From the NCBI GenBank assembly GCA_964620925.1, contig CAZUKL010000003.1, positions 4,230 to 68,229 on the forward strand: a stretch of 64,000 nucleotides of DNA, given 5' to 3'. Positions within the stretch are counted from its first letter, which is position 1. Each line of letters starts with the position of its first letter. Below the pieces are notes generated by a model. It saw nothing but the letters and a program-made list of their open reading frames with translations. It had not been told where the DNA came from and searched no databases. A program made the position numbers and the translations under genes. Below, one piece after another: positions 15,443 to 49,554 of this stretch. The stretch comes from an uncultured Gammaproteobacteria bacterium (GTDB lineage: Bacteria; Patescibacteriota; Microgenomatia; UBA1406; GWC2-37-13).

Positions 15443-15451
15443 ATAGTTATA

Positions 15452-16633: not shown

Positions 16634-16635
16634 AG

Positions 16636-16824: not shown

Positions 16825-16837
16825 TATTTAACATTTA

Positions 16838-18236: not shown

Positions 18237-18405
18237 GTTGTTTTCTCTCCTTTGCTCGGGCTATGCCTCTTTGAGTTGCGCGCCCGTGCATCAACTGGTA
18301 ATAGTCCTTCATAAACTTCTGAATGAGTAATACGAGTTCATCTTCTGTGTGTATTTTTTCTACCATTTTCAACCACCTCCTTTCTTGTTTTATTTTTTCT
18401 ATCAA
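18217..18405 (-). CDS. Small hypothetical protein
   Basis: ORF at the head of the minus-strand operon, overlapping the SpoVG-like start. No motif. Confidence 0.3.
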   Translation of the reverse strand: MIEKIKQERRWLKMVEKIHTEDELVLLIQKFMKDYYQLMHGRATQRGIARAKERKQHDPRNK

Positions 18406-18545
18406 TTTTTATGAGCAATGAAAAAAACTCAGTCAATTTGCTGAGCTCTGTTGAGGAAAGGATGTATCCCTGTTTACTCGTCGTTACGTTTTCGGTACTC
18501 ATTACCGATAGGATATAAAACAGGGTTGTAGCTAAAGTTAGCTAA

Positions 18546-19262: not shown

Positions 19263-19286
19263 AATTCATTACATTTTCAATGCTGC

Positions 19287-20180: not shown

Positions 20181-20181
20181 A

Positions 20182-20919: not shown

Positions 20920-20986
20920 ATTTCAATACATTTTCAATACTTATGTTTGTTTATCATATTTTATCAGTTTTTGCTACAATAAGCCT

Positions 20987-21874: not shown

Positions 21875-21891
21875 TTGTAAACTGTACGTAT

Positions 21892-22077
21892 ATGAAAAAA
21901 ACAATCCACAGTGCAAAATCAAAAATGAGTAAGGAGCAGGGAAAGAGATTTTGCGAAGCTAAGGTTAGCTATGAGAAACTTCTGCAAGAGGTTTTGCCAT
22001 TTGTGCCAAGGCTTCAGTCAAAAGAGGCTAGTACAGCTGGTACATGGCAGAATACTTCTAGCCTTTTACTTTATTAA
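21892..22077 (+). CDS. Small hypothetical protein
   Basis: 61-aa ORF 17 nt after the protease gene. No motif. Confidence 0.25.
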   Translation: MKKTIHSAKSKMSKEQGKRFCEAKVSYEKLLQEVLPFVPRLQSKEASTAGTWQNTSSLLLY

Positions 22078-22233
22078 AGTACCGCCATATTAAAGGTTTC
22101 AAGTACCGTTTTAATATTTTCTAATCTAAATCCAAACTCAATTTCTCGGTTCTTAAACGCGTCTACCAGGGGGAGCACTTCGGCAAGCTCAGTGCAAGTC
22201 CTTCAATATATTCAGGACAAGCTAATTCTAAAT

Positions 22234-22542
22234 ATGAATACCGAGCCATGGTATGTATATTTACTTCTTTGTGATCAGAAAACTTTTTATGTGGGGATAT
22301 CAAATGATGTAAGAGAACGTCTACGAGGTCACATCTCAAAGCAATCATTTTTTACTAAAAAGTTTTCTGAAATCAAGCTAGTCTATTGTGAAAAGCACAC
22401 AGATAGATTTGAAGCAGCAAGACGAGAAAAACAACTAAAAGGTTGGACTCACACAAAGAAGCAAATGTTAGTAGAGCAAAAACTGGGCTATAATAGTTGC
22501 ACTGATCTTGTTGAAGCTCTGACGGACAGGATGAAGAACTAG
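22234..22542 (+). CDS. GIY-YIG nuclease family protein (UPF0213-like)
   Basis: WYVYLLLCDQKTFYVGISNDVRERLRGH...RREKQLKGW matches the GIY-YIG core. Confidence 0.8.
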   Translation: MNTEPWYVYLLLCDQKTFYVGISNDVRERLRGHISKQSFFTKKFSEIKLVYCEKHTDRFEAARREKQLKGWTHTKKQMLVEQKLGYNSCTDLVEALTDRMKN

Positions 22543-22711
22543 TGAGTTTTCAGAACGTTTTTTCAAGAGAAGCTCGGATTGAGCCTGGCGCGATTATTGA
22601 TCAGAGTGTTGTTCTTGAACAACCAACTATTAAAGGAACTGTTCAACTACATAAAGCAATCGTGTCTGGTCATCAAGCAAATTACAGTGTTTCCCAAATA
22701 TAATTCGCTTT

Positions 22712-23320
22712 ATGAGCAACTCTCAAGCAAACAAATCAAAATCTAATCAGACTGTCGCGTGGAAGCACATTTCTTCTAAGACTCTACTTAAGCACTCGCG
22801 ACTTAATGTGGTTGAGGATGTAATTGAATTGCCAAGTGGATCGCATGTTCCCTATCTAAAATTTACCGATGTGGGTGACGCAGTAACGTTGATTTGTCTT
22901 AAAAATGAGAGTGTATTAGTACAACGTGAATATTGCTACCCAATAGATGAGATTCTGCTCCAATTCCCTGGTGGGAAAATAGAAAAGGGTGAATCACCGG
23001 AGCGCGCTGCAAGACGCGAATTACATGAAGAGTCTAGCTACACAGTAGAAACTCTTGAGGTTTTAGGATGGTATTATCGTGACTATCGCCGATCTAACTC
23101 CCGCATCTTCGTAGTGCTGGCAAAAGATCTATCCTCAACAAGCCAAATACAAGGCGACGAAGAAGAATCGATAGAGTCATCATGGGTATCTGTAAAAAAA
23201 CTCGAGAGCATGATTAAGAATAATGGGGTGAGAAATTATTCTATGCTAGCCGGATGGGCAATGCTGAAAGCAGAGTTCGACGAAAATATTATAGATTTGG
23301 GAAATTCAGCAACACAGTAA
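22712..23320 (+). CDS. NUDIX hydrolase (ADP-ribose pyrophosphatase-like)
   Basis: Nudix box GGKIEKGESPERAARRELHEESSY. Confidence 0.8.
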   Translation: MSNSQANKSKSNQTVAWKHISSKTLLKHSRLNVVEDVIELPSGSHVPYLKFTDVGDAVTLICLKNESVLVQREYCYPIDEILLQFPGGKIEKGESPERAARRELHEESSYTVETLEVLGWYYRDYRRSNSRIFVVLAKDLSSTSQIQGDEEESIESSWVSVKKLESMIKNNGVRNYSMLAGWAMLKAEFDENIIDLGNSATQ

Positions 23321-23401
23321 TCTGTTGTGTCATTAAATCTGGCGCAAGAATTTCGCTATTCCAGTTTGCTTTCCGAAAATCGTTCCACTGCTCGAGCCCA
23401 A

Positions 23402-23533
23402 GTTGACAAGTACTGAAATTGAGGTTCGTATCAAAGGGTTTTGCGGCTTCGTATCGCACTTCATTCTCCTCTACTCTCAGGGACGATAGTACGAGCTTGA
23501 TTAACAGCTGTTTTTCTTCAACCCGAGTACCCT
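23402..23533 (-). pseudogene. 3'-terminal relic of a second, paralogous serine recombinase gene
   Basis: About 130 nt at about 80% identity (by eye) to 12899-13030. Encodes EEKQLLIKLVLSSLRVEENEVRYEAAKPFDTNLNFSTCQ against EEKRQLIKLVLQNLRVEGKVVRYEATKPFDTILNFSTCQ. The upstream part of the gene is missing. Confidence 0.8.
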
Positions 23534-25117: not shown

Positions 25118-25525
25118 ATGCCCATCAGTCAATATCCGATCCGACCCTACCTTTGGTGGTTTACATATGTTCCTGTCATTAGCAGCACGGGATTTAACAC
25201 CCTATTCACTGACACTATCTACCTGAGCCAAGATTTGTATATGGATTCACAAAGGGAAATTCCAGATCCAGTCACGGTGGCACTGATCAAGCATCAGGAG
25301 GTCCATGCTCATGGTGCCTCGCTCTGGAAAGCAGTGCATTTCGTGTGCTCCTCTACCTTCAGACTCCAAGAGGAAACTCTGGCGTACAAAGCTCAATTCA
25401 ACTATCTTAAAAAGCACCACTTGTCATGGGATCTTGGAGACGTAGCTCGACAGTTCACATCTTCTCAATCACCACTCTGTCGATCTCAAGCCACTGTTTT
25501 CCAGAGATACACTTGCCAAACTTAA
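25118..25525 (+). pseudogene. Truncated duplicate of the 28572-28988 gene
   Basis: The first about 340 nt are about 96% identical (by eye) to 28572-28911. After about 25457 the frame runs antisense into the next gene. Confidence 0.6.
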
Positions 25526-26255
25526 TCTCACCTTTCGGTGTAGCGACTGCATATTCGTTGTCCAACCATGCCACGAAACCGAGATTTTGATTCGGAGACC
25601 AATCTGTAGTATGCATCAGCTTGCCATCGATGAAAAACTCCACGCTATCTGCATGCCACTCCAGCACATACTCGTGCCAAGCCGTCATATCTGTATCTAT
25701 CATGCATTCACTTGTTCCTGTAAATCGCTGCATTAGCTTCGCTGCGAGTCCTGAGCGACCAGTGATCCTCGCATATCCTATGGCAAGAGCGAGAGGGATA
25801 GCATAGAGGAGCGCGCTAAGACGTCTTGTGTGCACCACCTGTGCTTTCCATCCACAACCTGGTAGGCCTGGGACGAGAAGCATGCGTGAAGGTGGCGAGG
25901 ACGAAAAGAACCATACTGATTCAGGAGCTGCAAACCAACCACCCTGCATGCTGAAAGGCTTATTCCAAAAACCAAATCCAGCAGTACCATTTAAATATAC
26001 GTCTGATTGTGGGATATTCGATGCGTTGTGGGAAAAGCGTGCTTTGATCGTCATCTTCAGCGGCGGTCTCCATCTGTATTCCGACTTCCCTAGGAGGGTG
26101 TAATCATCTATTTGTGCATCTGTATACCTATCTGATTGAGCACTCTCAAAACCAAGTCGTAGGACTGACCGTTCTACATGCACAGCAGCCCCACCTGAGA
26201 GCACCTGCGTCCAATAACTTGCGATTCCTGATTCAAAATCATCTTTAATAGTCAT
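25455..26255 (-). CDS. Concanavalin A-like lectin/glucanase-fold protein (GH16/LamG-like)
   Basis: WHEYVLEWHADSVEFFIDGKL and GFVAWLDNEY patterns. Weak, recalled similarity. Confidence 0.35.
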   Translation of the reverse strand: MTIKDDFESGIASYWTQVLSGGAAVHVERSVLRLGFESAQSDRYTDAQIDDYTLLGKSEYRWRPPLKMTIKARFSHNASNIPQSDVYLNGTAGFGFWNKPFSMQGGWFAAPESVWFFSSSPPSRMLLVPGLPGCGWKAQVVHTRRLSALLYAIPLALAIGYARITGRSGLAAKLMQRFTGTSECMIDTDMTAWHEYVLEWHADSVEFFIDGKLMHTTDWSPNQNLGFVAWLDNEYAVATPKGEIKFGKCISGKQWLEIDRVVIEKM

Positions 26256-26524: not shown

Positions 26525-27466
26525 TTAGTTCGTAACAATCCGAGTACGTGATTTCAGCTGCGAATCTCTCATCTGTGGATTCAACACCTCTGTGCAAAGC
26601 TTTCCCATAGCGTTGCCATATTCTGCGGCGAGCCGGTGACTGTTTGGTACTGACTGGGGATTCAACGAATGCACTATACCCTGCATAAGGTTTGTTCCTC
26701 TATCAAATATTTTGACCGCTGCTTTGGTTAGAGGTGTCTGCCTCCCAACAGCACTGGTAAATACAACCTTAGCAAAGGCGTGTGTCCATGCATAATATGT
26801 GTCACCACTCACGTCCTGATAGCCTGCGCTGGCATCCTTACACGCAAGCAATGCATCACTCCACTGACACATCCTATCAATCGCTTCGTTGGGCTCAAAC
26901 TTTGGTATGTTCGATACTATACGAGTATCAAGCCACCTTGCGTGAAGTCTTGAGGTGATGCAAAGTCTCCAGAGTGCGGCATGTAGATCCCCATCTGTTT
27001 GTCTGAGAGCTATGTCAAGCTGCGCATTGAAGTCTAATCGCTTGTTCCTTTTCTTATGTTCAGCTAGTACACCGTTGAAGAGACTATCTACATCTGCATA
27101 GGGTGTACGTGCAAAATCATGAAGGGTTGGGACATAATCAGTAAACTGGACTAATGTGCCAGCCATATTCAACAAACTTGATCCAGGATATACTCCATTG
27201 ATTTGCGAACTTGCTTTGAGCAGTGAGCCACCTCGCATTGCTTCGATCATGTCGGGTACCCGAGGCTGTAGAGGAACTTCAGAGGCTCCGTTGATTCTCT
27301 GGGCGACATCTCTATGATAGGCATCATGCGGTGGGGCCACGACCAATGTATATACAGCCTTTGCCGCACTGACAACTCCCATACGCAAATCATGGAGGCT
27401 TGACGTATCACTACTTCCGGGCGTCATGTGACCCATCCCAGTCGAACTTATAGCATTCTCCTGCAT
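26525..27466 (-). CDS. Hypothetical protein (313 aa)
   Basis: Long ORF with no competing frame. No recognisable motif. Confidence 0.4.
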   Translation of the reverse strand: MQENAISSTGMGHMTPGSSDTSSLHDLRMGVVSAAKAVYTLVVAPPHDAYHRDVAQRINGASEVPLQPRVPDMIEAMRGGSLLKASSQINGVYPGSSLLNMAGTLVQFTDYVPTLHDFARTPYADVDSLFNGVLAEHKKRNKRLDFNAQLDIALRQTDGDLHAALWRLCITSRLHARWLDTRIVSNIPKFEPNEAIDRMCQWSDALLACKDASAGYQDVSGDTYYAWTHAFAKVVFTSAVGRQTPLTKAAVKIFDRGTNLMQGIVHSLNPQSVPNSHRLAAEYGNAMGKLCTEVLNPQMRDSQLKSRTRIVTN

Positions 27467-27552: not shown

Positions 27553-28380
27553 ATGTCAAAATCAAAAACGAGAAACAGTGAACAAAAACGACTCCAAGTC
27601 TATTGCTCAATCAATGACTTTGCTCCTCTATTCTATGACCTGGAGTATATCTTCAGCAGATTGAAGGAAGTTGGTATTGATGGTGTAGAGATGCTCGTCG
27701 GTGTCAAATCACGATGGAGTCCAAAAAAGATCATCAACCTATCTCATAAGTATGACCTCCCGGTTGCTAGTATCCATCAACCATTTTGGAGCGTTTTAGG
27801 GATATTTGAAGATATTGGGTTTGTAGACTTTGCAGCTAGTATCGGTGTCAAAAATATCGTATTTCACCCATTGCCACGGATCTCATTTTCGAGCTTCAAA
27901 ATGAGATCATATCTTGAGAAAATTTCGATGCTCCAAGCAGAGAGGGGTATGTGTTTCATGCTTGAAAATATGCCCTTCTCCTATAATATTCCAGCACTCA
28001 AGCACTTCTTTCCTCTTTCAAATGAGACTGCAGATATTGAGAAAATATTTGATATCACTAAAGCTTACAATCTCTCAATGGCACTTGATACTGATCATCT
28101 CCGCATCAGACGCCCACACTTGGAGCAATGGTACTCAAAAATTTTTCCTCGAATCAGGAACATCCACCTTAGTAGTTTTGCTGAAGGTAAAAAGCACCTT
28201 CCACTTCATCTCGGTGATTTCGATTCTCATTCGTTCGTCGACGATCTTTGTATGAGAGGCTATTCAGGGAACATCACCCTAGAAATCTCATATCCACGTT
28301 TGATTCAACCGTTTTCACTGGATTTTGAATCCATCAGGAAATCTGTAAAAATCATTCGCGATTCCTATTCGGGAGGTTGA
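27553..28380 (+). CDS. Xylose isomerase-like TIM-barrel protein (sugar phosphate isomerase/epimerase family)
   Basis: Size and pattern fit: GIDGVE..., VFHP..., LENMP..., DTDH..., HLS. Confidence 0.55.
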   Translation: MSKSKTRNSEQKRLQVYCSINDFAPLFYDLEYIFSRLKEVGIDGVEMLVGVKSRWSPKKIINLSHKYDLPVASIHQPFWSVLGIFEDIGFVDFAASIGVKNIVFHPLPRISFSSFKMRSYLEKISMLQAERGMCFMLENMPFSYNIPALKHFFPLSNETADIEKIFDITKAYNLSMALDTDHLRIRRPHLEQWYSKIFPRIRNIHLSSFAEGKKHLPLHLGDFDSHSFVDDLCMRGYSGNITLEISYPRLIQPFSLDFESIRKSVKIIRDSYSGG

Positions 28381-28571: not shown

Positions 28572-28988
28572 ATGCCCATCAGTCCCTATCCGATCCGACC
28601 CTACCTTTGGTGGTTTACATATGTTCCTGTCATCAGCAGCACGGGATTTAACACCCTATTCACTGACACTATCTACCTGAGCCAAGATTTGTATATGGAT
28701 TCACAAAGGGAAATTCCAGATCCAGTCACGGTGGCACTGATCAAGCATCAAGAGGTCCATGCTCATGGTGCCTCGCTCTGGAAAGCAGTGCGTTTCGTGT
28801 GCTCCTCTACCTTCAGACTCCAAGAGGAAACACTGGCGTACAAAGCTCAATTCCACCATCTTAAAAAGCACCACTTGTCATGGGATCTCGGAGACGTAGC
28901 TAGACAATTCTCGACTATCAGATATCTGTGGGTGATGGACTACGGCGATGCTCGGAAGTTTATTCAGGAGGTGTGGGATGCTGCTTGA
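28572..28988 (+). CDS. Hypothetical protein (138 aa), intact copy of the duplicated gene
   Basis: Complete ORF preceded by TATAAT 8 nt upstream. The paralog fragment is at 25118. Confidence 0.5.
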   Translation: MPISPYPIRPYLWWFTYVPVISSTGFNTLFTDTIYLSQDLYMDSQREIPDPVTVALIKHQEVHAHGASLWKAVRFVCSSTFRLQEETLAYKAQFHHLKKHHLSWDLGDVARQFSTIRYLWVMDYGDARKFIQEVWDAA

Positions 28989-38892: not shown

Positions 38893-38937
38893 GACTTAAA
38901 ACTTAAGTTTTAATTTAGCCTTTAGCCTTATTTTATG

Positions 38938-38978
38938 TGCCTTGTCGCTTGCCAGCCGGAGAGGTTGGTCTAACGGTA
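38938..38978 (+). pseudogene. 5' fragment of tRNA-Gln interrupted by a 21-nt hairpin module
   Basis: TGCCTTGTCG + CTTGCCAGCCGGAGAGGTTGG + TCTAACGGTA equals nt 1-10 and 11-20 of the intact tRNA-Gln at 39250. The 3 nt upstream (ATG) are also duplicated. Confidence 0.75.
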
Positions 38979-38995
38979 ATCATGTGGTCCTATCT

Positions 38996-39249
38996 ATGTT
39001 TTATACTTACGTACTCATGAGTAAAAAAATGATGCGTTATATGTTGGAAGTACAAATGATGTCAAGCGTCGACTTGAAGAACACAATAAGGGTATAGGTG
39101 GCGAGTATACGAGGAAAAATAGGCCATTTATTATTATATTTTATGAGGCATTTCTATCAAAAAATGATGCCCAAAGGTAAGAGATGTTCTATAAGTCGGG
39201 CTATCGAAAGGAAGTTCTTCGCGAGAAAATTAAGGATAGTTTGAAGATG
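38996..39249 (+). pseudogene. Decayed GIY-YIG nuclease gene (frameshift plus in-frame TAA) abutting tRNA-Gln
   Basis: MFYTYVLMSKK, then after a frame change in the A-run DALYVGSTNDVKRRLEEHNKGIGGEYTRKNRPFIIIFYEAFLSKNDAQR*EMFYKSGYRKEVLREKIKDSLKM. This is the GIY-YIG/UPF0213 pattern. Confidence 0.7.
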
Positions 39250-39320
39250 TGCCTTGTCGTCTAACGGTAGGACAACAGACTCTGAATCTGTTTATCGGGG
39301 TTCAAATCCCTGCGAGGCAG
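39250..39320 (+). tRNA. tRNA-Gln (anticodon CTG)
   Basis: Hand-folded. Acceptor TGCCTTG/CGAGGCA (U1-A72), D arm GTCT-AACGGTA-GGAC. Anticodon arm ACAGA-CTCTGAA-TCTGT. T arm CGGGG-TTCAAAT-CCCTG, discriminator G. Confidence 0.9.
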
Positions 39321-39445
39321 CAAAATCGGAATGACTTCGTGAGACTTAAGGAGAAATAGCCGCGAACTCTTCGGGTTCGAACAGATTATGCTTGTTGGAC
39401 TACTTTCAATGAGCAGTATGAGCCGCTCGTTTACGGCATGTATTT

Positions 39446-40447
39446 ATGAAAATGAAACTAACGAAACCACCTATTCCAATTTTATGGTTGGATACATGGT
39501 TTATTATTGACCTCACAAAAGCACTAAATGGAGAAAGGTCTCAGATCGGAAAAGAAAACGCAGAGAAAATATTCGACTTGGTTGTTAATTTAACAAAACA
39601 GAAGAAGCTAATATGTCCTGAGGGAGACCAGGGGATTGAGATTGAAGATGGTGGTAGGCTCATTGAGGAAGCTCGTAAATTCCAGACACAACTCTCACAA
39701 GGCATATCATTACATTTTTGGGCAGGTGTTGAACACCAACAGATCCAGAGAATGATGAAAGCCGTAATAGAAAAAGATAAATCGGTTGAATTCCCATGGG
39801 AAGGTATCTTTACCCGAGATTTGATTGAAGATATCGAACGCAAAGATCCATATATCGTGAGTGTTCATATCGACCCAAGACCTGAAGAGCTAAAAAAACG
39901 TCAAGATATAAATAAATCAGTTTCAACGGATTGGGAAAAACTGAGACAGGATGCATTAAAATCTAAACAAAGTTACTCAGAAAGACTTCAAATAGAGTTC
40001 AAGGGGATAGCAGATGCAATTGTGCATGTAATGGCAAATGCAGCAGCGAAAACTATTCACAAAATGCCACTTTCAGATGATGAATACTCACAGCTAACTG
40101 CTGTAGCAGGAACACCGCTTTCATGGTGGGAGCATTACTCTGGGAAACAGGATGTGCTAAATGATGTGTTGAAGTTCTATCGATCTCCTGAATACTCACT
40201 CATCCCATATGTTGATGTTAGTACTCGTTTACTCTCGGAGTTAATCACAGGAAATGAAGTTATCCAGCCAAGTGATGTTATGGATATTCATCATATTGCA
40301 ACTGTTTTACCATATGCAACGTATATCGTTCCCGATAAAAAAATAAAAAATAGAATCGAGGGGAAGAAGACAAATCTTGCTAAAGACTATCCATGTGAAA
40401 TATTAAAATGGCAAAATGTTTTGCCATTGCTCGAAAAACTTGCATGA
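39446..40447 (+). CDS. Hypothetical protein, possibly PIN-like nuclease fold with a large insert
   Basis: The N-terminal ILWLDTWFIIDL and C-terminal SDVMDIHHIATVLPYATYIVPDKK resemble the first and last acidic motifs of PIN domains. Weak. Confidence 0.3.
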   Translation: MKMKLTKPPIPILWLDTWFIIDLTKALNGERSQIGKENAEKIFDLVVNLTKQKKLICPEGDQGIEIEDGGRLIEEARKFQTQLSQGISLHFWAGVEHQQIQRMMKAVIEKDKSVEFPWEGIFTRDLIEDIERKDPYIVSVHIDPRPEELKKRQDINKSVSTDWEKLRQDALKSKQSYSERLQIEFKGIADAIVHVMANAAAKTIHKMPLSDDEYSQLTAVAGTPLSWWEHYSGKQDVLNDVLKFYRSPEYSLIPYVDVSTRLLSELITGNEVIQPSDVMDIHHIATVLPYATYIVPDKKIKNRIEGKKTNLAKDYPCEILKWQNVLPLLEKLA

Positions 40448-41355
40448 TTACATATAGAAACCTCGTTGATAAATCAATAAAAGTTGAAAAGCTTTTACTA
40501 GAAAATAAAATAATCGATTCTCCAATTAAAGGACGTTTTAAACGTTATCAAGGTATGGTTTCCTCGCTCAGAGATAGCTGGGAAGCAAAGACAATGGATC
40601 AATTTTGGAAGTCTTCCAAGGGCGATGAGCTGGGATTTGCTCTCAAAGAATTACATGAGTTATCAGATATTCTTGAACAAATAATGGCCTCTTTTGACTC
40701 TCTATCAGACACAAGTAAAAAGTTTATAAAAGAGAAAATGCCAATCATTCTTTCTGGAACTAATTTTACTGTCGATGAGAATTCAGCGAATAGCGCAGCT
40801 CGGAATTATCAATTTGAACTCCGTTTAGCGAGCAAGTTTGCTCAAGCAAAATACAAAAATATTGCTTTTGCTGAGCATCCAGATCTTTTAGTTACGGTTG
40901 AGAGTAAACCGTATGCTTATGAGTGTAAACGAATATTTGGCAATCCTGAGACTAAAATTCAATCAAATATAGAGACTGGGTTAAAACAGCTTGAGAGAAA
41001 TAAAGACTCATACTTCTCGGGAGTGGTCGCTTTGGATCTCTCTCCGCAATATGAACTAGGAAAGAATTGGTTGATAGCCAAATCCCGAGAGGAAGCGAAC
41101 ACTATTGCTTTAGATTCATTAGAAAAAGTTGCAAATACAATACATTCCAGAATCTATAAAGTCAGAGAAGCTGCAACAAATGGATATTTAGCTGGAATAA
41201 TCCTCAATTTATCTACTGTTTATGTAATTTCTAGCAATAATGAATTTGGGTGGGTACAAGAAATAGGAGTTTTGGTCTTTGCTAAAGAAAATCCATCCAA
41301 AGCAATGCAGTTTCTGAATGATATGAAAGAATTAGAGAAGTACGCTATTCAGTAA
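40444..41355 (+). CDS. Hypothetical protein with PD-(D/E)xK-like motif
   Basis: HPDLLVTVESKPYAYECKRI (D...E-x-K). ATGA overlap with the upstream gene suggests translational coupling. Confidence 0.35.
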   Translation: MITYRNLVDKSIKVEKLLLENKIIDSPIKGRFKRYQGMVSSLRDSWEAKTMDQFWKSSKGDELGFALKELHELSDILEQIMASFDSLSDTSKKFIKEKMPIILSGTNFTVDENSANSAARNYQFELRLASKFAQAKYKNIAFAEHPDLLVTVESKPYAYECKRIFGNPETKIQSNIETGLKQLERNKDSYFSGVVALDLSPQYELGKNWLIAKSREEANTIALDSLEKVANTIHSRIYKVREAATNGYLAGIILNLSTVYVISSNNEFGWVQEIGVLVFAKENPSKAMQFLNDMKELEKYAIQ

Positions 41356-41821
41356 ATCGGGCGATTAAATTAATATAATCTTCTTTAGCCTCATGTTTTG
41401 CCTGATCTAATGCTTTCTGTAAATCAACTTTCATCGCTGCATCTTGAGTATTGTCTATCCACTCAACCCAAATCCGAACAATATCACTAACGAACCAGTG
41501 TGGCTTCTCATTCAGATGCACGCCACCCACTACATTTGCTCCGCCATTCCTTGAGCCATCATCATCCACATGCATCACATAATTATTTAACGGTTCACGC
41601 CAATCATTATTGTATTCCGTCATATTAAATCCACTATTGTTATTTAGAAGCTGTTTCCCATTATTGTAAAGAAAGCTATACAAACTTCGTGCGTGAAGAT
41701 AAATAGAATCTTTAAAGTAATTAACTGTGTTATCAGGCTGATGTTCTTCAAAGAGGCTTAACAATCTATCTGCTCCTAAAAGCAATCTCAGTTCATAGGT
41801 AATATCATCAAGTTTTTTCAT
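41345..41821 (-). CDS. Hypothetical protein (about 158 aa)
   Basis: ORF convergent with 40444-41355. No motif. Start at MKKLDD. Confidence 0.35.
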   Translation of the reverse strand: MKKLDDITYELRLLLGADRLLSLFEEHQPDNTVNYFKDSIYLHARSLYSFLYNNGKQLLNNNSGFNMTEYNNDWREPLNNYVMHVDDDGSRNGGANVVGGVHLNEKPHWFVSDIVRIWVEWIDNTQDAAMKVDLQKALDQAKHEAKEDYINLIARFTE

Positions 41822-41949
41822 AATGTATGTTAAAAAAGATAACGTAAAAGTCAAACACTTTCTAGGCATGCGATGCGAGTCACAACATTGATTTTTACAC
41901 CTGGATTTGCTACAATACTCTCAGGTCATTGCGGAGCGATGGCCTATTT

Positions 41950-42678
41950 TTATGGGTAAATAATCAAGTCACCTGTGGCAATCTTCTTTTGAATCACTTC
42001 ATACGACACCTCATGACCTGCCTCTTTCTTCTTTTTACCTAGGAAATTTCTGCCAATTGGAGTAACAATGAGGTCAATAAGTTGTAAGCCACTAATATTT
42101 GCCTTTTTATCTTTGAGTACAAACTCTTCGACTTTATTAGATACATCAGCACCGCTGAACTGCTCAGTTCCTGCATTCTTAGCGCGTAAGAATTCAAGTT
42201 CGATTTTGATATTCTCGGTATTATCTCGTTTTTCTGGATAAATTTTACAATTTTGGTCCTGGCAACGCATTAGGATACGATCAAGTAGTAAGTTGAGAGA
42301 GTAAATATACGGATCAACTGCGTTTGCGCCCACTTGTACCCAAAGCTCGCTCTTTCTGATAAGACATGTGACAATTTCAAAGTCTGTTGCTTCAATTAAT
42401 AGATTAATCTCAGTATAGAACCGTTTTCTAAAATCAGGATTATTAAATTTATCATTTAATATATTTTTGCTTTTATTAGGGCGGGTTATCTCTACGGTAT
42501 GAAGAATGATATCTTCTTCATTAAATAATTCTTTTTTTAGTAATTTCAGTCGATGATCCAACTGCTTATATTCACTCTCTGAGATGCACAGAGCACCTAA
42601 TACAAAGATATTGTATGGATCCTTTGCATGCAGATAGTTGAGATTGTGATTGCCACTTTCATCTATAAATACGAGCAT
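41950..42678 (-). CDS. DUF3800 family protein
   Basis: MLVFIDESGNHNL N-terminus (the IDESG motif) and a length typical of DUF3800. Confidence 0.6.
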   Translation of the reverse strand: MLVFIDESGNHNLNYLHAKDPYNIFVLGALCISESEYKQLDHRLKLLKKELFNEEDIILHTVEITRPNKSKNILNDKFNNPDFRKRFYTEINLLIEATDFEIVTCLIRKSELWVQVGANAVDPYIYSLNLLLDRILMRCQDQNCKIYPEKRDNTENIKIELEFLRAKNAGTEQFSGADVSNKVEEFVLKDKKANISGLQLIDLIVTPIGRNFLGKKKKEAGHEVSYEVIQKKIATGDLIIYP

Positions 42679-42778
42679 ATTGTGTGATTATACAGCTCAG
42701 TTCTGATAGTGTACATTCCCCGCAGCACATGATAGGAGAGACGGTAGTCGCCTCTTCGGCGACCCTCCGACGAGGAGG

Positions 42779-42830
42779 GGACAACAGACTCTGAATCTGT
42801 TTATCGGGGTTCAAATCCCTGCGAGGCAGC
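42779..42830 (+). repeat. attR-like direct repeat: 3' 52 nt of tRNA-Gln
   Basis: Identical to 39270-39321. Preceded by ACGGTAG and a 31-nt two-hairpin module (42748-42778). Confidence 0.85.
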
Positions 42831-43006
42831 CAACATTCGCTGAAGCCGCAATTGCGAAGCTGCGCACTCATTTTGTATACGCTGCAAATAGCGCGTCTAT
42901 CAACTGGCAAGTTCGGCGCATTCGCACAAACATGCCGAATGTTTTGACAACACTTCATTGTTCTGCTTATAATGAAGCCATCATTAGCATTTGATTGGCA
43001 GCTCAT

Positions 43007-43387
43007 ATGAGTATTCAAAAAAAGGTGCTTGTCGTCGAAGACGATTCATTTTTGAGTGATATCTACAAGTCAAAGCTCTCTCTCCAAAACTATGAGGTGA
43101 CCACTGCCTCAGACGGCCAAGAGGCACTAGTACTCGCAAATCAAATACACCCCGACCTCATCATCCTCGATGTCCTTCTTCCAAAAAAGAACGGGGTTGA
43201 TGTACTCAAGCAGCTAAAAAAAGGGAAAGGCACAAGAACAATCCCCGTCATTATAGCCTCAAACCTTGATAAAAGTATCCTGATGAGCAAAGGACTCAAT
43301 GACGGTGCAGCAGAGTGTTTTGTCAAAAGCGACATTTCACTTGAGGAGCTCATTGGAATTTGTAATAAGCATCTCCACGTAGCGTAG
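43007..43387 (+). CDS. Stand-alone response regulator receiver (CheY-like)
   Basis: VLVVEDD...DLIILDVLLPKKNG...IIASN...K pattern. Confidence 0.85.
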   Translation: MSIQKKVLVVEDDSFLSDIYKSKLSLQNYEVTTASDGQEALVLANQIHPDLIILDVLLPKKNGVDVLKQLKKGKGTRTIPVIIASNLDKSILMSKGLNDGAAECFVKSDISLEELIGICNKHLHVA

Positions 43388-45245
43388 CGGGCGGTAGGTG
43401 CAGGCCGTGCTTTGTCTTCTCCCAATAGAATGGATTCGATCCAAACTGCCAGATTGCACGTATAGTCGCGATGCTTATGCCAAACCAGTACAACGGGAGC
43501 AAAAATACAAATGGAAGTAGATCCCATCGCTTTTGCTCACTCGCTGCCACCAGATGCACGATGATGTATGTTAGATTGCCAACGAGCAGATTAAAGAATG
43601 TCACATATCCAAACCAAACTGGGATAATACCTCCATAGATGTGCTGATCCCCCATAGTCAAAAAGAACATAACCCACAACAGTGGGTTAAGAAGTGGCAA
43701 AAAGAAGCTTGATCCAAAGGTGACAACTGAAAAAAGTGCATTTTTCACTCCGAGTTCTTTCATAAATCTGCGTGGGTGGCTGGTGTGCACGAGAAAGGTG
43801 AGCAGGTATCCTTTTTGCCAGCGAGTCCGCTGCTTGATCCAACTCAATATATTTGCATTCGCTTCTTCATATGTGTATGAATTCATCACTAAAGTTTTAA
43901 ACTTGTAGCGGAATAAGCGGAGCCCCAGATCAGCGTCTTCGGTCACGTTGTAGGGATCCCAGGTACCTACATGCTTCAGATAGGTGGTGACAAAGTGATT
44001 ACTTGTACCACCAAGCGGGATCGGAGATACGGTCTCATGAAGACCTGGAAGGTAGTAATCAAACCAGAATCCATATTCCAAAGCAAACAACCGGGTGAGT
44101 ATGTTTTGTCGCGAGTTATAGAAGTTCAATCGGGCTTGGATGCACACGGTATCAAGCGTCGAGTGTAAAAATCCTGTGTATGCTTTCTTGAGTTGGTCTG
44201 GCTCAGGGTTATCTTCTGCATCGTAAATGACGGTAAATGTGCCACGTGCATACGCAAGTGCATAGTTGCACGATCGTGGCTTGGTGAGTACTGATCCTTT
44301 TGGCACCCGCACTAACTGCGCCGCTATTTTGAGCACTGATGCGTCGGGGCCGGATGCACCCACCCCTTCATGCTGCAAGGCGCGTATGGTCTGATCGTCA
44401 CCAAGCTCGACGATGAACTTGATATCAAGTTTTTCTGCAGGATAGTCAAGTGCGAGAAGGCTGCGAACGAGGTGCGGAATGACTTTCTCTTCATGCATCA
44501 AGGGGACTAGGATTGTGTAGTACGGCAGCTCTGTCGCCGTCACCCGAGAGATCTGCTCTTCGCTCACTGCCAGCTCACGATGGGGATGCAGTGACTTGAG
44601 AAAGATGAATATCTTAAGCGGGTTAATCAGTAGATAAATGAGATTTAGCACGATAAAGGTAGCAGCGCTCGTGTAGTAAGGAATGATAAAAAGAAGCGCC
44701 GTCCAAAGAGCCATCGTGGCAATTGGAAACACTTTTGGCACGAGCTTTGTACTGTATGTTTTGGTCGATAGCTCTGGGTGCCAGACATGTATACGATCCT
44801 CTGTGGCTACAGAGAGCTCCGTATAAAATGAGTTGTTTATAGCTTCAAAGATCTCCGGGGGAGGCGAGATGACCAAGTGATATGTCTGATATTCTGTATA
44901 CGTAAGCAGCTCTCTACATGACTCCTCTGAAATGAAGGGCGAAGAGGCGGCGATGTAAAGCTGGTGATCTAACTCAAAAGGGAACAAAAGGTGCTGAGAG
45001 ATGACTTTGATCGGTATCGACTGCACTATGGACAAGTGAGAGCTGAGGTTCACCTGAAGGGAAGGGTAGTAAGGCAAATCGTATGCTCGTGCGAGCTCTG
45101 GGTAGAACTGGGCGACATGTACACAGCCTTGAGCTATCAATGTAGGTATAGGATCCGCGCATGACTGGATCAGTGCTGCTGCTTTGGTTTGCTGTTCGGG
45201 CAGGATGAGCGATGACTGTAGTAGATGTGTTTTATCGTATATCAT
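43350..45245 (-). CDS. Membrane family 2 glycosyltransferase (cellulose/chitin-synthase-like) with N-terminal T2SSE_N (MshEN-like) domain
   Basis: GT2 core (YTILVPLMHEE..., YDAEDNPEPDQ, QRTRWQKGY = QxxRW) flanked by TM helices. The N-terminal about 130 aa resemble the GspE N-terminal domain. Confidence 0.7.
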   Translation of the reverse strand: MIYDKTHLLQSSLILPEQQTKAAALIQSCADPIPTLIAQGCVHVAQFYPELARAYDLPYYPSLQVNLSSHLSIVQSIPIKVISQHLLFPFELDHQLYIAASSPFISEESCRELLTYTEYQTYHLVISPPPEIFEAINNSFYTELSVATEDRIHVWHPELSTKTYSTKLVPKVFPIATMALWTALLFIIPYYTSAATFIVLNLIYLLINPLKIFIFLKSLHPHRELAVSEEQISRVTATELPYYTILVPLMHEEKVIPHLVRSLLALDYPAEKLDIKFIVELGDDQTIRALQHEGVGASGPDASVLKIAAQLVRVPKGSVLTKPRSCNYALAYARGTFTVIYDAEDNPEPDQLKKAYTGFLHSTLDTVCIQARLNFYNSRQNILTRLFALEYGFWFDYYLPGLHETVSPIPLGGTSNHFVTTYLKHVGTWDPYNVTEDADLGLRLFRYKFKTLVMNSYTYEEANANILSWIKQRTRWQKGYLLTFLVHTSHPRRFMKELGVKNALFSVVTFGSSFFLPLLNPLLWVMFFLTMGDQHIYGGIIPVWFGYVTFFNLLVGNLTYIIVHLVAASEQKRWDLLPFVFLLPLYWFGISIATIRAIWQFGSNPFYWEKTKHGLHLPPATLRGDAYYKFQ

Positions 45246-45435
45246 GGGTGAGTCCGCACTCTGCCACAAGCTTGTGCAGATTAGTGATAAGGTGTTGTTC
45301 GTGTAGCTTAATTGCTTTGAGTTTCTTGCTTTTATCAAGCAGTTGTAGTGCACGGACGTGATCTATGAGTCGGTGTTCAAGTATCAATACTGTCTTAATT
45401 TCTTCCACAAAGCTATGTATGTCTTTGGTGACCAT
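45232..45435 (-). CDS. Small helical hypothetical protein
   Basis: 67 aa. The 3' end overlaps the GT2 start by 14 nt. Tightly packed with 45439-45624. Confidence 0.3.
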   Translation of the reverse strand: MVTKDIHSFVEEIKTVLILEHRLIDHVRALQLLDKSKKLKAIKLHEQHLITNLHKLVAECGLTHDIR

Positions 45436-45438
45436 AGG

Positions 45439-45624
45439 TTATTTAAACAACTGAGTGATGTGAGACTCTAAGAGCTTGTGCGTGGAGACCGCATGCAACA
45501 GTGTTTTTCTCAGCTGACGAGGTACTCGCTGCCCTTTCAATCGAGTGACAAAATGCAATAGTCCTTTCAGCTTGTTTTGTATCACTTTGTTGTATACCAA
45601 TAGTTCGCTTGCTGATGAGTCCAT
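45439..45624 (-). CDS. Small helical hypothetical protein
   Basis: 61 aa, 3 nt upstream of the next ORF. No motif. Confidence 0.3.
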   Translation of the reverse strand: MDSSASELLVYNKVIQNKLKGLLHFVTRLKGQRVPRQLRKTLLHAVSTHKLLESHITQLFK

Positions 45625-45767
45625 AGGCGATCAACAAATTTGTGAATAGCATACCCGTATCTAAGAGTATCGATACCCAAACCAACAGTGATCTTGTTTG
45701 AACTACAAATACATAGTAGTGTATGGGGTGTAGGAAAAGCAAGCGAAGATATATCTATCTAAAAAAA

Positions 45768-46196
45768 CTACTCTGTGGTGGATATTGAAGGCAGCGCATT
45801 TTCTTGCGACACAAACTCGCGAATTGCACTGATGATATCCTCAAGTCGGTGCTCGGCTTTCAGCAAATACCTTGACACTCCCAACGCCATCATATGGTGA
45901 AGGTTGGTGGGGTCTGCAGAGTTGCTGACCACCATGATGGGTATGTGCTTCCACTTTGGATTTTCACGAACCTTCTGCATGAACTCGAGTCCATTCATGT
46001 CTTTGAGGTAGTAGTCGAGCCAAATAGCATGCGGAAGCTCAGGAAACTCCTCTAGATAGTGGATCGCCTGGCTGCCAGCGACACAAGACACAGGCTCAAA
46101 TCCACTCAGGGTGAGTTTGTGCGTGATTGCCTTCAAAAGAAGCTCCTCATCTTCAACGACGAGTATGGATGGTTTGACTGCGTGAGTCTTTTTCAT
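45768..46196 (-). CDS. Response regulator receiver protein
   Basis: ILVVEDEELL...IWLDYYLKDMNG...MVVSN...K. 7 nt downstream of the histidine kinase gene. Confidence 0.8.
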   Translation of the reverse strand: MKKTHAVKPSILVVEDEELLLKAITHKLTLSGFEPVSCVAGSQAIHYLEEFPELPHAIWLDYYLKDMNGLEFMQKVRENPKWKHIPIMVVSNSADPTNLHHMMALGVSRYLLKAEHRLEDIISAIREFVSQENALPSISTTE

Positions 46197-46203
46197 CGGA
46201 ATA

Positions 46204-48405
46204 TTATACAGGTTTGATTGGATTCTCAGCAGCCACTGTTGCTTTCGTATTTGACACCCCTTGTATCGGAAGTGTAAACCAGAAGGTGGTACCTTTGTGA
46301 GCCTCACTTCGAAATGATATCTCCCCACCTGAAGATTCGACTATTGCTTTGACGAGGTAGAGCCCTAGTCCTGTGCCATCAGTTTCGATTTTGGTTATGT
46401 TACTGCCGCGATAAAACTTTCGAAAGACATTGGCTTTTTCTGAAGCTGGAATCCCATAACCTGTGTCTGAGACTTGGATAAGGATATTGGTGCCTTTTTT
46501 TGAAATGAAGACAACGATCTCTCCTCCTTCGGGGGTGTACTTGATCGCATTCGTAAGTAGATTTACAAAGACTTCATGGATCAGTTTTGGGTCGAGGAGA
46601 ATCAGTGGCAGATGAGTGTGTGCGCTCAAGATAATCTGTTGCTTTTTAATATCAGCACGTGGCTGAAGCTCACCTATGATATTGGTTGTGAGTTTTATTA
46701 TATCCACTTCTTTTGCGTCGATCACGATTCGACCTGACTCAATACGAGAGATGTTGAGGAGTGCATTTACGAGCGCGATCATCCGATCGCTCGAATCTGA
46801 TATGTTTTGTACAAATGTCTGCTGTGGAGGAGTCAGAGCGCCAGCATCACCTGCCAGTAACATCTCACTATACCAGCGCATCGCAGAGAGTGGTGTACGG
46901 AGCTGGTGGGAGGCAAGAGAGATAAACTCAGTCTTCATGCGATCAACTTCCTTTTCACGAGTCACGTCGCGTATCACCTGTACTACTCCAGCGATCACAT
47001 TTCGCTCAACAAGGGGAGAGCTTGTGAGCTTGACGGTGAGCTTCGTGCCGTCTTTTCGTTGGTATATAGCCTCTTCGGTGACCTGTGTCTTTGAGTCAAA
47101 CACCTTTACGATCGTCCTCTGTGCGTCTTTGATTTGCTCGCCTGTGCTATCAAAGGCATGTATTGCTTTAAAATACAGCTTCCCCAAAAGCTCCTCTTCT
47201 GAGTATCCGAGGAGCCGCTCGGCGCTTTGATTTACGTGTGAGATGTGTAGGTGTTCATCGGTGACAATGACCGCATCACCAATACTCGCAAGTATTGCCT
47301 CGTCACGTACATTTTGCTTGTTTAGAAGTTCGGTTTGCAGGGTGAGTTGCTGCTCGATACTCTTTATTTTGCTTATATCTTCCTCTGTGCCCACAAACCC
47401 GTCGATCCTCCCCTCATTGAGGATCGGTGCTATATGTGCGATAGCATCATATATAACACCATCTTTGCGTCTATTACGTATTTCACCTACAAATGCTTTT
47501 TTTTCTATTTTGATTTGGTGCCACAATTTCTTGTAAAACGAAGGGCTCATCAGCCCACCCCACAAACGTGGAGTACTTCCACGCATTTCTTCAAAGGTAT
47601 ATCCCGTGATCCGCTCGGCAGCAGGATTTGCAAATATCACCCTACCCTCCTGATCAGTGATGATGACGTGCTGTCCGCTACTTATCACTGCTTTTTTGTA
47701 TGTCTCCTGCTCACTCTCTGCATGGTGCGGGGGGATGCTTCCGTACGGATAGAACTCTTCATAATACTGTCGTGATGGAGGTATATGGTACGATTTCAGA
47801 TCATGGGATACCGCATCACAAAATGATTGCGGACCAATGATGATCCAGCGTCCGAGTGGCACGGTGCGAGATAACGTTCCAATCAGCGGGTACAGTGCAT
47901 GATGACTGACAGGATGTAGGTGAGTCTGTGATGTGTCACAAAGTGTGTGCACCTCTTTTTCACCTATCATCTTTCCCGTATGTACGGCGACTATGTGCAA
48001 TGTACGATGAAACTCTTTCGTGCGCAGATAGCTCAACATCGGTGCAATGCCTACACCCGCACCTATGAATATGAGCGGGTCATCGCCAGGAATGTCAAAA
48101 AGTGAACCGTGTGGTCCAAATAGCTCTGCCTCTTGCCCGATAGTCATGTCTCGCAAAGACTTTTTGAAGCCGCTTTCTGAAACACGAAACAAGATGCTAT
48201 ATGTACCTGAATCTGGCGAACTGGTGAGTGAAAACGCGCGTCGATCTCCACGCGGATCTGGGTAGGTGAGGGGAATCACTAGCCATACATATTGACCAGG
48301 AACAAATGTCGTGCAATGAGCTTTTTTTGGGACAAAGACATACTCATACACACCATCAGCCACTTCATGTTTGTGCTGGAGTGCCACCTGGATTTTTTTC
48401 GGCAT
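46204..48405 (-). CDS. Sensor histidine kinase: ferredoxin-NADP reductase-like (FAD/NAD-binding) N-domain + 2 PAS + HisKA + HATPase_c
   Basis: N-terminal VPGQYVWL...RAFSLTSSP...LFGPHG...FIGAGVGIAPM (FNR-like). Two PAS blocks. H-box SLASHQLRTPL. N/G boxes NLLTNAIKYTP, DTGYGIP, GTGLGL. Confidence 0.8.
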   Translation of the reverse strand: MPKKIQVALQHKHEVADGVYEYVFVPKKAHCTTFVPGQYVWLVIPLTYPDPRGDRRAFSLTSSPDSGTYSILFRVSESGFKKSLRDMTIGQEAELFGPHGSLFDIPGDDPLIFIGAGVGIAPMLSYLRTKEFHRTLHIVAVHTGKMIGEKEVHTLCDTSQTHLHPVSHHALYPLIGTLSRTVPLGRWIIIGPQSFCDAVSHDLKSYHIPPSRQYYEEFYPYGSIPPHHAESEQETYKKAVISSGQHVIITDQEGRVIFANPAAERITGYTFEEMRGSTPRLWGGLMSPSFYKKLWHQIKIEKKAFVGEIRNRRKDGVIYDAIAHIAPILNEGRIDGFVGTEEDISKIKSIEQQLTLQTELLNKQNVRDEAILASIGDAVIVTDEHLHISHVNQSAERLLGYSEEELLGKLYFKAIHAFDSTGEQIKDAQRTIVKVFDSKTQVTEEAIYQRKDGTKLTVKLTSSPLVERNVIAGVVQVIRDVTREKEVDRMKTEFISLASHQLRTPLSAMRWYSEMLLAGDAGALTPPQQTFVQNISDSSDRMIALVNALLNISRIESGRIVIDAKEVDIIKLTTNIIGELQPRADIKKQQIILSAHTHLPLILLDPKLIHEVFVNLLTNAIKYTPEGGEIVVFISKKGTNILIQVSDTGYGIPASEKANVFRKFYRGSNITKIETDGTGLGLYLVKAIVESSGGEISFRSEAHKGTTFWFTLPIQGVSNTKATVAAENPIKPV

Positions 48406-48537
48406 AGATCAATAGAAATCAATCATAGGAATCCTAGCAGGATTGGATTCCAGGAGCAAGGGCTTGTAATCTTTTCAAAACCTTTCTGAGACCTGTTGCA
48501 CAATAGTATGTATTCATTCCCTGTCATCTATTACCGC

Positions 48538-48900
48538 TGTCATCCCCTCCGCCGATTCGACGGAGGGTGTAATCAATCTCCTACACCCCCGTCCCGACTG
48601 GTCGGGACACCCCCTCATTGGGAAACGAGGGGGAGATGGGTTGGCTCCCCCTGCGAAGCGAGGGGGTATGCGAACCAGAGGTGAGCAGGGGGTGTAGTGT
48701 ATAGCTCATACACCCCCATACTCGCTTTAGCTCGTATTACCCCCTCATTGGGAAATGAGGGGGAGTGTTGTGGTCTGGGCAAACTCCCCCTCGTCAAATG
48801 ACGAGGGGGGAACTGAACGAAGTGAAGTGGGGGTGTAAGGATTGGACTGACACCCCCTCGTCCCGCAGAGCGGGATAAATTCGTGAACGAGGGGGAGATG
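48538..48900. repeat. Array of about 9 GC-rich hairpins built on CCCCC(T)...(A)GGGGG arms
   Basis: Hairpins at 48545-48567, 48591-48608, 48610-48633, 48647-48666, 48688-48717, 48740-48763, 48786-48809, 48829-48857 and 48853-48895. 48610-48633 and 48740-48763 are near-identical. Confidence 0.8.
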
Positions 48901-48917
48901 GGCAAGCTCAGGTCTTC

Positions 48918-49397
48918 TCAAAAGAGGCTCTCTGCAGCATGCTCAGTTTGGCTATCCTCAATCAAGCGCGTAGATTTGCTTGCTGCCACTGCCATCACAT
49001 CACACTGCTCATTTTCAGCATGACCCATATGCCCGCGAATCCATGAAAAGGTTACGTGGTGCGTGGCCACGAGGGGGATGAGGAGCTCCCAGAGATCACG
49101 ATTTGCCACTGGCTTTTTGGCTGCGGTTCTCCAGCCCCGCGCTTGCCATGAGTCGATCCACTTTTTGACAAATGCATTCACGATGTACTCAGAGTCGGTC
49201 ACGACAGTCACGCGCGAATCAGCAGGTGCCACACCGAGACCTGCGATGACTCCACGCAGCTCCATGCGGTTGTTAGTGGTTTTGGCGTATCCTTGGGACC
49301 CTGTGGAGACGACTTTGTCATCGAGCTTAAGGAGAAACCCATATCCCCCCGGACCAGGATTGCCCGAGCACGCACCGTCAGTGTAGAGAAAATACAT
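48918..49397 (-). CDS. rnhA: Ribonuclease HI
   Basis: YTDGACSGNPGPGGYG...TNNRMEL...TDSEYI...W..RGW...NRDLW...W.RGH.GH..NE.CD. Confidence 0.9.
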   Translation of the reverse strand: MYFLYTDGACSGNPGPGGYGFLLKLDDKVVSTGSQGYAKTTNNRMELRGVIAGLGVAPADSRVTVVTDSEYIVNAFVKKWIDSWQARGWRTAAKKPVANRDLWELLIPLVATHHVTFSWIRGHMGHAENEQCDVMAVAASKSTRLIEDSQTEHAAESLF

Positions 49398-49554
49398 ATG
49401 GAGAGAGTATAGAACAAACGTATAGTGAATAGCGTATAACTTATAACGAAATTGAAAAAATGTCGCATAGAGTAAATACATTGTTCGGCCTTTTTATATT
49501 TTTACCTTTTAATTTTTGATTTTCGTTCTACGTTATCAACTATACGTTATCAAC

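Follow-up and report, generated by a model that had tools for sequence, protein, structure and literature searches.

The stretch of DNA analyzed here (64,000 nt of contig CAZUKL010000003.1, which we call the window) carries a 3.5-kb islet that is a real, horizontally acquired insertion, made site-specifically at the 3′ end of the tRNA-Gln(CTG) gene. A duplication of the tRNA 3′ part, a foreign base composition and an empty site in a relative together make this site-specific origin well supported. The islet holds four open reading frames (ORFs A-D) and no recombinase gene, and we therefore take it to be either a non-autonomous element of the cis-mobilizable element (CIME) kind or the decayed remnant of a larger island, situated at a tRNA hotspot and filled with a mosaic of accessory cargo; we give this reading a probability of about 0.62. 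In this account, site-specific recombination at the tRNA 3′ end would have duplicated the last 52 nt of the gene, and the islet would move only if a recombinase encoded elsewhere acted on the two attachment-site (att) copies. The cargo would be a mosaic of accessory genes carried by other integrative elements, with ORF C a probable leftover of a serine-recombinase module. The islet is laid out as follows:

39250-39321, plus strand: intact tRNA-Gln gene, anticodon CTG (ARAGORN; Rfam RF00005, 61.4 bits), the integration target, on the attL side
39270-39321, plus strand: 52-bp direct repeat, left copy; it begins at the 3′ strand of the D stem and ends with the tRNA
39322-39445, plus strand: left non-coding arm, which includes the upstream region of ORF A
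39446-40447, plus strand: ORF A, 333 amino acids (aa)
40444-41355, plus strand: ORF B, 303 aa
41345-41821, minus strand: ORF C, 158 aa
41950-42678, minus strand: ORF D, 242 aa
42687-42715, minus strand: promoter-like site TGTACA-17-TATAAT, just upstream of ORF D (consensus scan, 10/12 matches)
42722-42727, plus strand: internal GCAGCA, the same as the final tRNA bases plus one (39317-39322)
42727-42778, plus strand: right arm ("spacer"), 52 nt, with the hairpins GTCGCC-TCTTC-GGCGAC and CCTCC-GACGA-GGAGG
42779-42830, plus strand: right copy of the 52-bp repeat on the attR side, a partial tRNA-Gln that is not a functional tRNA

A preliminary description of this DNA had read the repeat as an att duplication of the tRNA-Gln 3′ part enclosing an A+T-rich insert, and both statements stand. 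The repeat search pairs 39270-39324 with 42779-42833; the two copies agree at 52/52 positions and the 53rd base differs. Allowing up to 3 mismatches, a 25-nt sub-pattern of the repeat occurs exactly twice in the window and not once in 100 shuffles. The right copy, which lacks the 20 nt of the tRNA 5′ end, receives no ARAGORN call and scores 23.3 bits in Rfam, below the threshold. The insert body (39322-42778) has a G+C content of 37.0%, against 45.5% for the whole window and 46.7-47.3% for the flanks, and is filled by its four ORFs, the largest non-coding stretch being 124 nt. The final 58 nt of the left arm are conserved with the region upstream of ORF A homologues in three of the loci that we recovered by homology (L005-L007; BLASTN match from window position 39388), and the folding of this arm is unexceptional (z = −0.95). 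The right arm folded together with the right repeat copy gives a modest z of −2.43. Promoter-like sites in the consensus scan are in total no more frequent than in shuffles, and the one before ORF D is only suggestive.

An exact search of JGI metagenomes with the 52-mer returned two contigs from relatives of the host, L038 and L039, and each shows the tRNA-Gln site in a different state. The flanking genes of L038 are 82-92% identical to those of the window, and their order is a membrane-protein gene, tRNA-Gln and then CATCTTTCGCTAAAGC. In the window, the right repeat copy is followed by CAACATTCGCTGAAGC, which matches CATCTTTCGCTAAAGC at 13/16 positions in a fixed register. Because L038 has no second repeat copy, it is an empty attB; the empty tRNA-Gln site that the preliminary description had suggested looking for in relatives thus exists. 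The flanks of L039 are 84-90% identical to those of the window. This contig has the same left flank and tRNA, then the 52 nt ACATGATAGGAGAGACGGTAGTCGCCTCTTCGGCGACCCTCCGATGAGGAGG, which equal window 42727-42778 with 1 mismatch, and then a perfect 52-nt partial copy of the tRNA.

The 109 nt common to L039 and the window are 99% identical in surroundings that are ~10% diverged; under neutral divergence, the probability of at most 1 mismatch in 109 positions at 10% divergence is 1.3e-4. Each lineage may recently have gained this common right end on its own, or a process such as gene conversion from the tRNA may have maintained its uniformity. The perfect repeats therefore give no date for the insertion. 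They had been taken earlier as an argument for recent integration, which is not supported: the same perfect copy occurs in a ~10% diverged relative, and conversion or repeated site-specific events could keep it perfect equally well.

The same contigs bear on whether the islet could be a chimera, in which two contigs were wrongly joined at the tRNA k-mer. Logan contigs do break inside the repeat, as a branch point in assembly graphs would have them do, and their starting within it (30 nt) is what a k=31 graph yields at a repeated sequence. Yet Logan contigs of SRR13208906 and SRR13208889 are 100% identical to 39292-42492 and 39292-41488, respectively, and so reproduce the attL junction. Further, L039, from an unrelated JGI metagenome, repeats the junction between right arm and partial copy, the sequence beyond the right copy matches that after the tRNA in the empty site (L038), and the contig containing the window is 108 kb long. 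With the junctions reproduced in independent assemblies, the assembly artefact against which the preliminary description had cautioned was not borne out, and we consider a mis-join extremely improbable.

We found no recombinase match for ORFs A-D in Pfam, NCBIfam, PHROG or PADLOC, in agreement with the initial view of an integrase-less island, and Pfam scans of ~40 further ORFs in the window identified no tyrosine integrase. A tblastn search with eight serine recombinases from related loci detected one gene in the 64-kb window, at 12861-14345 on the minus strand. It encodes 494 aa with Resolvase, Recombinase and Zn_ribbon_recom domains, and its 3′ end overlaps a tRNA-Asn gene (12822-12894). 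This recombinase heads a separate island of ~10.5 kb (window 12822-23522) that also encodes a GmrSD_N+HNH protein, an EcoRI-type adenine methylase, Hypoth_Ymh, an SDH-type protease and unknowns. Direct repeats of 129 nt with 81% identity flank the island, at 12891-13019 and 23394-23522; the distal one suggests a remnant of the 3′ end of an older recombinase gene and hence serial integration at tRNA-Asn. It follows from this island that the lineage hosts serine-recombinase islands which abut tRNA 3′ ends and accumulate serially.

ORF C points to the same class of recombinase. Its three homologues (n=3) confirm by their N-termini a start at MKKLDD. In 2/2 independent contexts, the C gene (73% and 51% identity) lies 48-58 nt downstream of, and on the same strand as, a gene for a 434-aa large serine recombinase with Resolvase, Recombinase and Zn_ribbon_recom domains. 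One of these recombinase-C modules, in L048 (627-11208), stands at the head of a defence island that also has SIR2_2+DUF87 (HerA-like) and genes for type I restriction-modification; the other, in L052 (163-2239), comes within 162 nt of a tRNA-Ser 3′ end. By its gene neighborhoods, ORF C seems to be an accessory gene that has become separated from a large-serine-recombinase mobility module; a directionality or cofactor role for ORF C would be speculation. A remnant of the recombinase itself was considered near ORF C; the sole match (E=0.32) is noise.

In the window, the slot upstream of ORF C that holds a serine recombinase in relatives is occupied by ORF D. As first described, the fourth gene belongs to DUF3800 (PF12686): the Pfam match (E=1.7e-14) scores 55.2 bits where 21 are required and spans positions 1-148 of the 149-position profile, with FIDESG at the start and QLID near the C-terminus. 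In PADLOC it matches only the candidate model PDC-M04A, weakly (5.8e-5), and it shares 28-31% identity with accessory proteins encoded by phage JBD68 (gp43), a Paracoccus phage and alphaproteobacterial plasmids. Like the DUF3800 proteins of phages, plasmids and CRISPR loci, it is full length and above the Pfam threshold; it differs in standing alone, with no TPR fusion, no Cas12a2 or Cas12a3 neighbor and no Rfam DUF3800 motif nearby. An Rfam scan of 39200-43100 detected only the tRNA and its partial copy, and no DUF3800-I to XI, drum or skipping-rope motif. The DUF3800-associated RNA motif is frequent in the family and not obligatory.

The position of ORF D raises the question of whether the islet could be autonomous, with an uncharacterized protein, foremost ORF D, acting as an unrecognized recombinase. 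ORF D immediately precedes ORF C in the same orientation, at the place of the 434-aa recombinase of relatives, and it adjoins the right arm and the partial tRNA copy; D and C, however, are 128 nt apart, where the recombinase-C modules have a gap of 48-58 nt, and in none of the other recovered loci is ORF D a neighbor of A, B or C. The literature describes for DUF3800 an RNase H fold whose catalytic residues are rearranged, and ties to mobile elements and non-coding RNAs (PMC10910872, PMC5737381, PMC13594972), the family occurring as TPR fusions in Cas12a2 and Cas12a3 loci (PMC10910872, PMC13594972) and near eleven different RNA motifs (PMC5737381). But the literature searched gives no recombinase activity for DUF3800, the islet has no Rfam DUF3800-type RNA motif, and the DUF3800 genes of phage JBD68 and of plasmids are ordinary accessory genes located away from element ends. 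We regard an autonomous islet as very improbable.

A different history is suggested by comparing L039 with the window. L039 lacks exactly 39322-42726, and GCAGCA stands at both window junctions (39317-39322 and 42722-42727). Both L039 breakpoints fall exactly after GGCAGC, which fits site-specific events and would be unlikely for a random deletion. The tRNA, the 52-nt arm and the partial copy (the state of L039) could accordingly be an older scar, into which the 3405-bp cargo 39322-42726 was inserted later by a large serine recombinase using a GCAGCA core, and ORF C could be what remains of the inserting recombinase module. Short cores are typical of serine recombinases, ORF C elsewhere is always beside one, and serial insertion has a precedent at tRNA-Asn in the same genome, where an island lies between the tRNA and the 129-nt older recombinase remnant. 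Set against this, no recombinase is encoded in the cargo, the junction shows no evident dyad symmetry, and L039 is the single informative relative; moreover, GCAGCA is just 6 bp long, occurs again at 40040 and would equally serve a microhomology-mediated deletion. Alternatively, a full island may have lost its cargo in L039 by GCAGCA-mediated deletion. We judge the nested, two-step origin unlikely, and continue to favor a non-autonomous or decayed element.

Within the cargo of that element, ORF A belongs to a large, undescribed family. A word-indexed search found 27 homologues, and an exhaustive profile search extended the family to at least 816 clusters at 50% identity (E<=1e-3), nearly all ~330 aa long. 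In 50 members at 21-38% identity to ORF A, D16, Q62, E65, P254, D277, D280 and P289 are invariant and D297 is present in at least 90%. These include an acidic set D-E-D-D, each of its four residues following a predicted beta strand or standing at the beginning of a helix. ORF A has no Pfam, NCBIfam, PHROG or PADLOC match, its profile matches no PDB sequence, and its family members match no Pfam family at all, with no PIN-clan match in ~70 of them. An AlphaFold2 (AF2) model (predicted local distance difference test score, pLDDT, 87.7; predicted template modeling score, pTM, 0.87) consists of an alpha/beta N-part, a ~150-aa helical insert and an alpha/beta C-part. The top PDB entries in Foldseek are the PIN-like HARP RNase P proteins 7e8j (E=0.77), 7e8k, 7e8o and 7og5, together with Exo1; with E>=0.77 and template modeling (TM) scores of at most 0.36 (0.23/0.36 for the structural match), they are not significant.

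On this basis we lean slightly toward ORF A being PIN-like, with its domain split by the helical insert. The earlier proposal of a PIN-like first gene is upheld as to the conserved acidic residues; the fold drew a weak structural match (Foldseek E=0.77) and no sequence match in Pfam or PDB. ORF A resembles PIN-like nucleases (VapC, HARP/PRORP, FEN-like) in its four acidic positions and in having HARP and Exo1 as its nearest, non-significant neighbors, but differs from them in that the putative domain is interrupted by ~150 aa and the structural match has E=0.77.

Homologues of ORF A lie less than 8 kb from a large serine recombinase, in small elements, in 5/8 distinct contexts. These small elements also carry HTH_3 or LexA-like repressors and Phage_rep_O or Prim-Pol. 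The immediate neighbors of A vary: ORF B in the window and in locus L040, a DpnII-MboI-like protein upstream in L008, unrelated small proteins elsewhere; mostly the gene is solitary. In L008 (3774-5948), the gene for a 388-aa DpnII-MboI-like (PF18742) restriction-fold protein precedes the A-family gene with a 3-nt gap. Here the A family has another nuclease partner, in the gene order opposite to A-B; ORF B was considered as a relative of this partner and is not related to it. Around the A homologue that follows a tRNA-Asn gene in L010, we found no tRNA 3′ repeat.

ORF B is a predicted PD-(D/E)xK nuclease of a new family, an assignment resting on an invariant motif and a predicted core topology. 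In its 18 homologues, E125, P146-D147, Y157 and E160-C-K162-R163 are invariant. In the AF2 model (pLDDT 90.4), a helical N-domain (1-103) comes before alpha118-134, beta139-142, beta148-152, beta155-163, alpha168-185 and beta192-198, that is, a core in the order alpha-beta-beta-beta-alpha-beta in which D147 lies at the start of beta2 and ExK in beta3. The suggestion that the second gene is restriction-endonuclease-like is thus strengthened by a motif that is invariant in 18 homologues and placed on the expected core. By sequence, ORF B matches nothing in PDB or Pfam, and its Foldseek neighbors are all weak (E 0.06-0.5): YaeQ, OkrAI, R.BspD6I, MUS81-EME1 and a cap-snatching endonuclease. It shares with PD-(D/E)xK nucleases the E...PD...ExK pattern on the predicted core, whereas it has no significant match to a described family, an N-terminal helical domain of its own of ~100 aa and no methyltransferase partner.

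Judging from their sequence arrangement, ORFs A and B are one operon and translationally coupled. The A/B overlap is an ATGA at 40444-40447, as the preliminary description had noted, and it is kept in L040, where A (59% identity) is followed by B (82% identity). This is the sole other A-B pair in the recovered loci. In L041 and L042-L047, B is instead tightly preceded by a gene for a 217-aa protein unrelated to A, which is found upstream of B more often than A is. This 217-aa protein was tested as a cryptic relative of ORF A (hhalign probability 0.1%), and a 217-aa protein upstream of an A homologue in L005 was considered as the same protein as the B-linked one of L041 and L042; they are unrelated, and both ideas were rejected. 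L041 (8566-10909; GCA_034680565.1) contains a cassette of 212-aa, 217-aa and B-homologue genes with a G+C content of 33-38% in a 44-48% genome. It starts 74 nt after a tRNA-Glu gene and has no recombinase, making it another recombinase-less islet adjoining a tRNA; no tRNA 3′ repeat was found around this B cassette.

The content of the island had been likened to a small cassette. A tblastn search of A-D against all fetched loci recovered the quartet nowhere else and the A-B pair once (L040), in a small sample of 8 contexts for A, 4 for B and 2 for C, and it is this failure of the quartet to recur that leads us to call the island a mosaic. The earlier idea of defence or addiction genes mobilized in trans stays plausible. 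The A-B pair, for its part, would most likely act as a nuclease-based module for defence, abortive infection or addiction, with one protein sensing or holding back its partner. We put this forward tentatively, on the grounds that two proteins with nuclease-type conserved residues lie together in foreign DNA and that both are otherwise cargo of integrative elements or members of tRNA-proximal, low-G+C cassettes. A bolder proposal combines several such steps: the islet would be a recombinase-less hitchhiker, left with its att sites and an accessory, directionality-factor-like C gene and moved by helper large serine recombinases that target tRNA 3′ ends, A-B would be a new two-nuclease anti-phage or addiction system, and A would found a PIN-like family riding the edges of small elements in uncultured bacteria. 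We consider this whole combination improbable.

Several observations weigh against the reading of the islet as a CIME-like or decayed element with nuclease cargo. No cognate recombinase was found in the 64-kb window: the serine recombinase there is ~25% identical to the C-linked ones, sits 25 kb away at tRNA-Asn and has no link to the tRNA-Gln att. A 52-bp identity segment is more typical of tyrosine integrases, none of which was found in the window. We saw neither a circular or excised form nor an adjacent autonomous element of the sort that classical CIME accretion needs. The relative with the empty site represents a different species-level lineage (82-92% identity), not a sister strain. As to the cargo, Foldseek searches of PDB and BFVD gave no significant structural match for ORF A, the fold of ORF B is likewise without a statistically significant structural match, and PADLOC-DB 2.0 recognizes none of ORFs A, B and C. 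Phage, plasmid and IMG/VR collections yielded no relative of A or B apart from one plasmid protein: in annotated phages and plasmids, ORF A has no match and ORF B a sole match of 25% identity to a hypothetical protein on an Alteromonas megaplasmid, and viral contigs searched with the single proteins B, C and D and with alignments of A and B gave none. An exact search of IMG/VR with the 52-nt repeat, which would reveal a free attP, also returned no match.

The islet is part of a longer variable region. Both L038 and L039 continue with an RNase H gene (48918-49481 in the window) and lack window 42831-48970:

42831-48970: 6.1-kb block encoding a response regulator, a GT2 protein with an MshEN domain, a second response regulator and a PAS histidine kinase (Pfam); G+C 46.7%, host-like

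This block may be an older island, or it may have been deleted in the relatives; no third tRNA-Gln fragment bounding it is present in the window. Because the relatives lack it as well, the whole 9.6 kb downstream of tRNA-Gln is a hypervariable spot, of which the 3.5-kb island is the clearly foreign, att-bounded part. The extent first given for the island, 39270-42830, therefore holds for the att-bounded insertion, but the variable DNA goes on beyond it. When GTDB species representatives were searched with the neighboring GT2 protein, the best match had 48% identity, and no close genome or empty site was found.

Other features of the region were observed in passing. Just upstream of tRNA-Gln, at 38918-39240, lies a small GIY-YIG nuclease pseudogene with one frameshift and one in-frame stop; the gene is intact in L039 (4559-4924), and L038 has a 37%-identical GIY-YIG gene downstream of the tRNA instead. 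Small GIY-YIG genes seem to be mobile around tRNA-Gln. On the reverse strand of L038 (~1905-1999), directly after tRNA-Gln, a ~32-nt unit, CGCTAAAGCTACAGATTGGCCTTGCCATGTAT, is tandemly triplicated. Between the histidine kinase and RNase H genes of the window (48540-48910) are G/C-rich palindromic units, CCCCCTC...GAGGGGG, spaced ~130 nt apart, one of which also matches L039 1351-1386, indicating a dispersed repeat family like repetitive extragenic palindromic (REP) sequences or miniature inverted-repeat transposable elements (MITEs). Elsewhere in the window, a 300-nt direct repeat of 97% identity (25118-25417 and 28572-28871, 3454 nt apart) brackets two ORFs without Pfam assignment (25455-26255 and 26525-27466) and one with an AP_endonuc_2 TIM-barrel domain (27553-28380); this could be another small insertion or a duplication.

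Recombinase-less, att-bounded islands are a known phenomenon, as CIMEs and as decayed islands, and it is the cargo families, especially A, that are undescribed. The CIMEs of Streptococcus thermophilus are one comparison that lacks an integration module. In the ssrA islands of Dehalococcoides, the gene for a CcrB-like serine recombinase lies beside attL and is oriented toward the target, and the ssrA 3′ end is directly repeated over 20 bp; the islands stand in tandem arrays, and 15 without an integration module were read by the authors as cis-mobilizable elements (PMC3146451). The islet shares with both systems att copies of the 3′ end of a tRNA-like gene, the lack of recombination or transfer genes, low-G+C cargo and a hypervariable region downstream of the target, and serine-recombinase islands in the same genome abut a tRNA 3′ end. 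It differs from them in that no adjacent autonomous partner with the same att site was seen, in a repeat of 52 bp rather than the 20 bp of Dehalococcoides and in its very small size of 3.5 kb. Unlike the case of CIMEs, a relative of the islet retains just a 52-nt arm between the repeat copies, and mobilization of the islet is something we infer. Islands with P4-like tyrosine integrases and prophage remnants also combine an intact tRNA and a long perfect partial copy with atypical G+C and accessory cargo; in P4-like islands, however, the integrase normally adjoins the tRNA, where the islet has ORF A, and no tyrosine integrase was found in ~40 window ORFs.

The three states of one tRNA-Gln site (empty, scar and occupied) provide a concrete system for the gain and loss of recombinase-less islets. 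In it, an excised whole-island circle would read ...CCGACGAGGAGG, the 52 nt and AAAATCGGAATGAC, a cargo-only circle would read ...ACATTCCCCGCAGCAAAATCGGAATGAC, and the empty attB would read the tRNA 5′ part, the 52 nt and CAACATTCGCTGAAGC. ORF A represents a widespread family that is absent from Pfam, NCBIfam, PHROGs, PADLOC and PDB and recurs as cargo of small serine-recombinase elements, ORF B a new PD-(D/E)xK family with interchangeable upstream partners, and ORF C the mark of a conserved module of serine recombinase plus small protein. The A, B and C families are therefore reasonable candidates for the discovery of defence systems or recombination cofactors in poorly sampled lineages.

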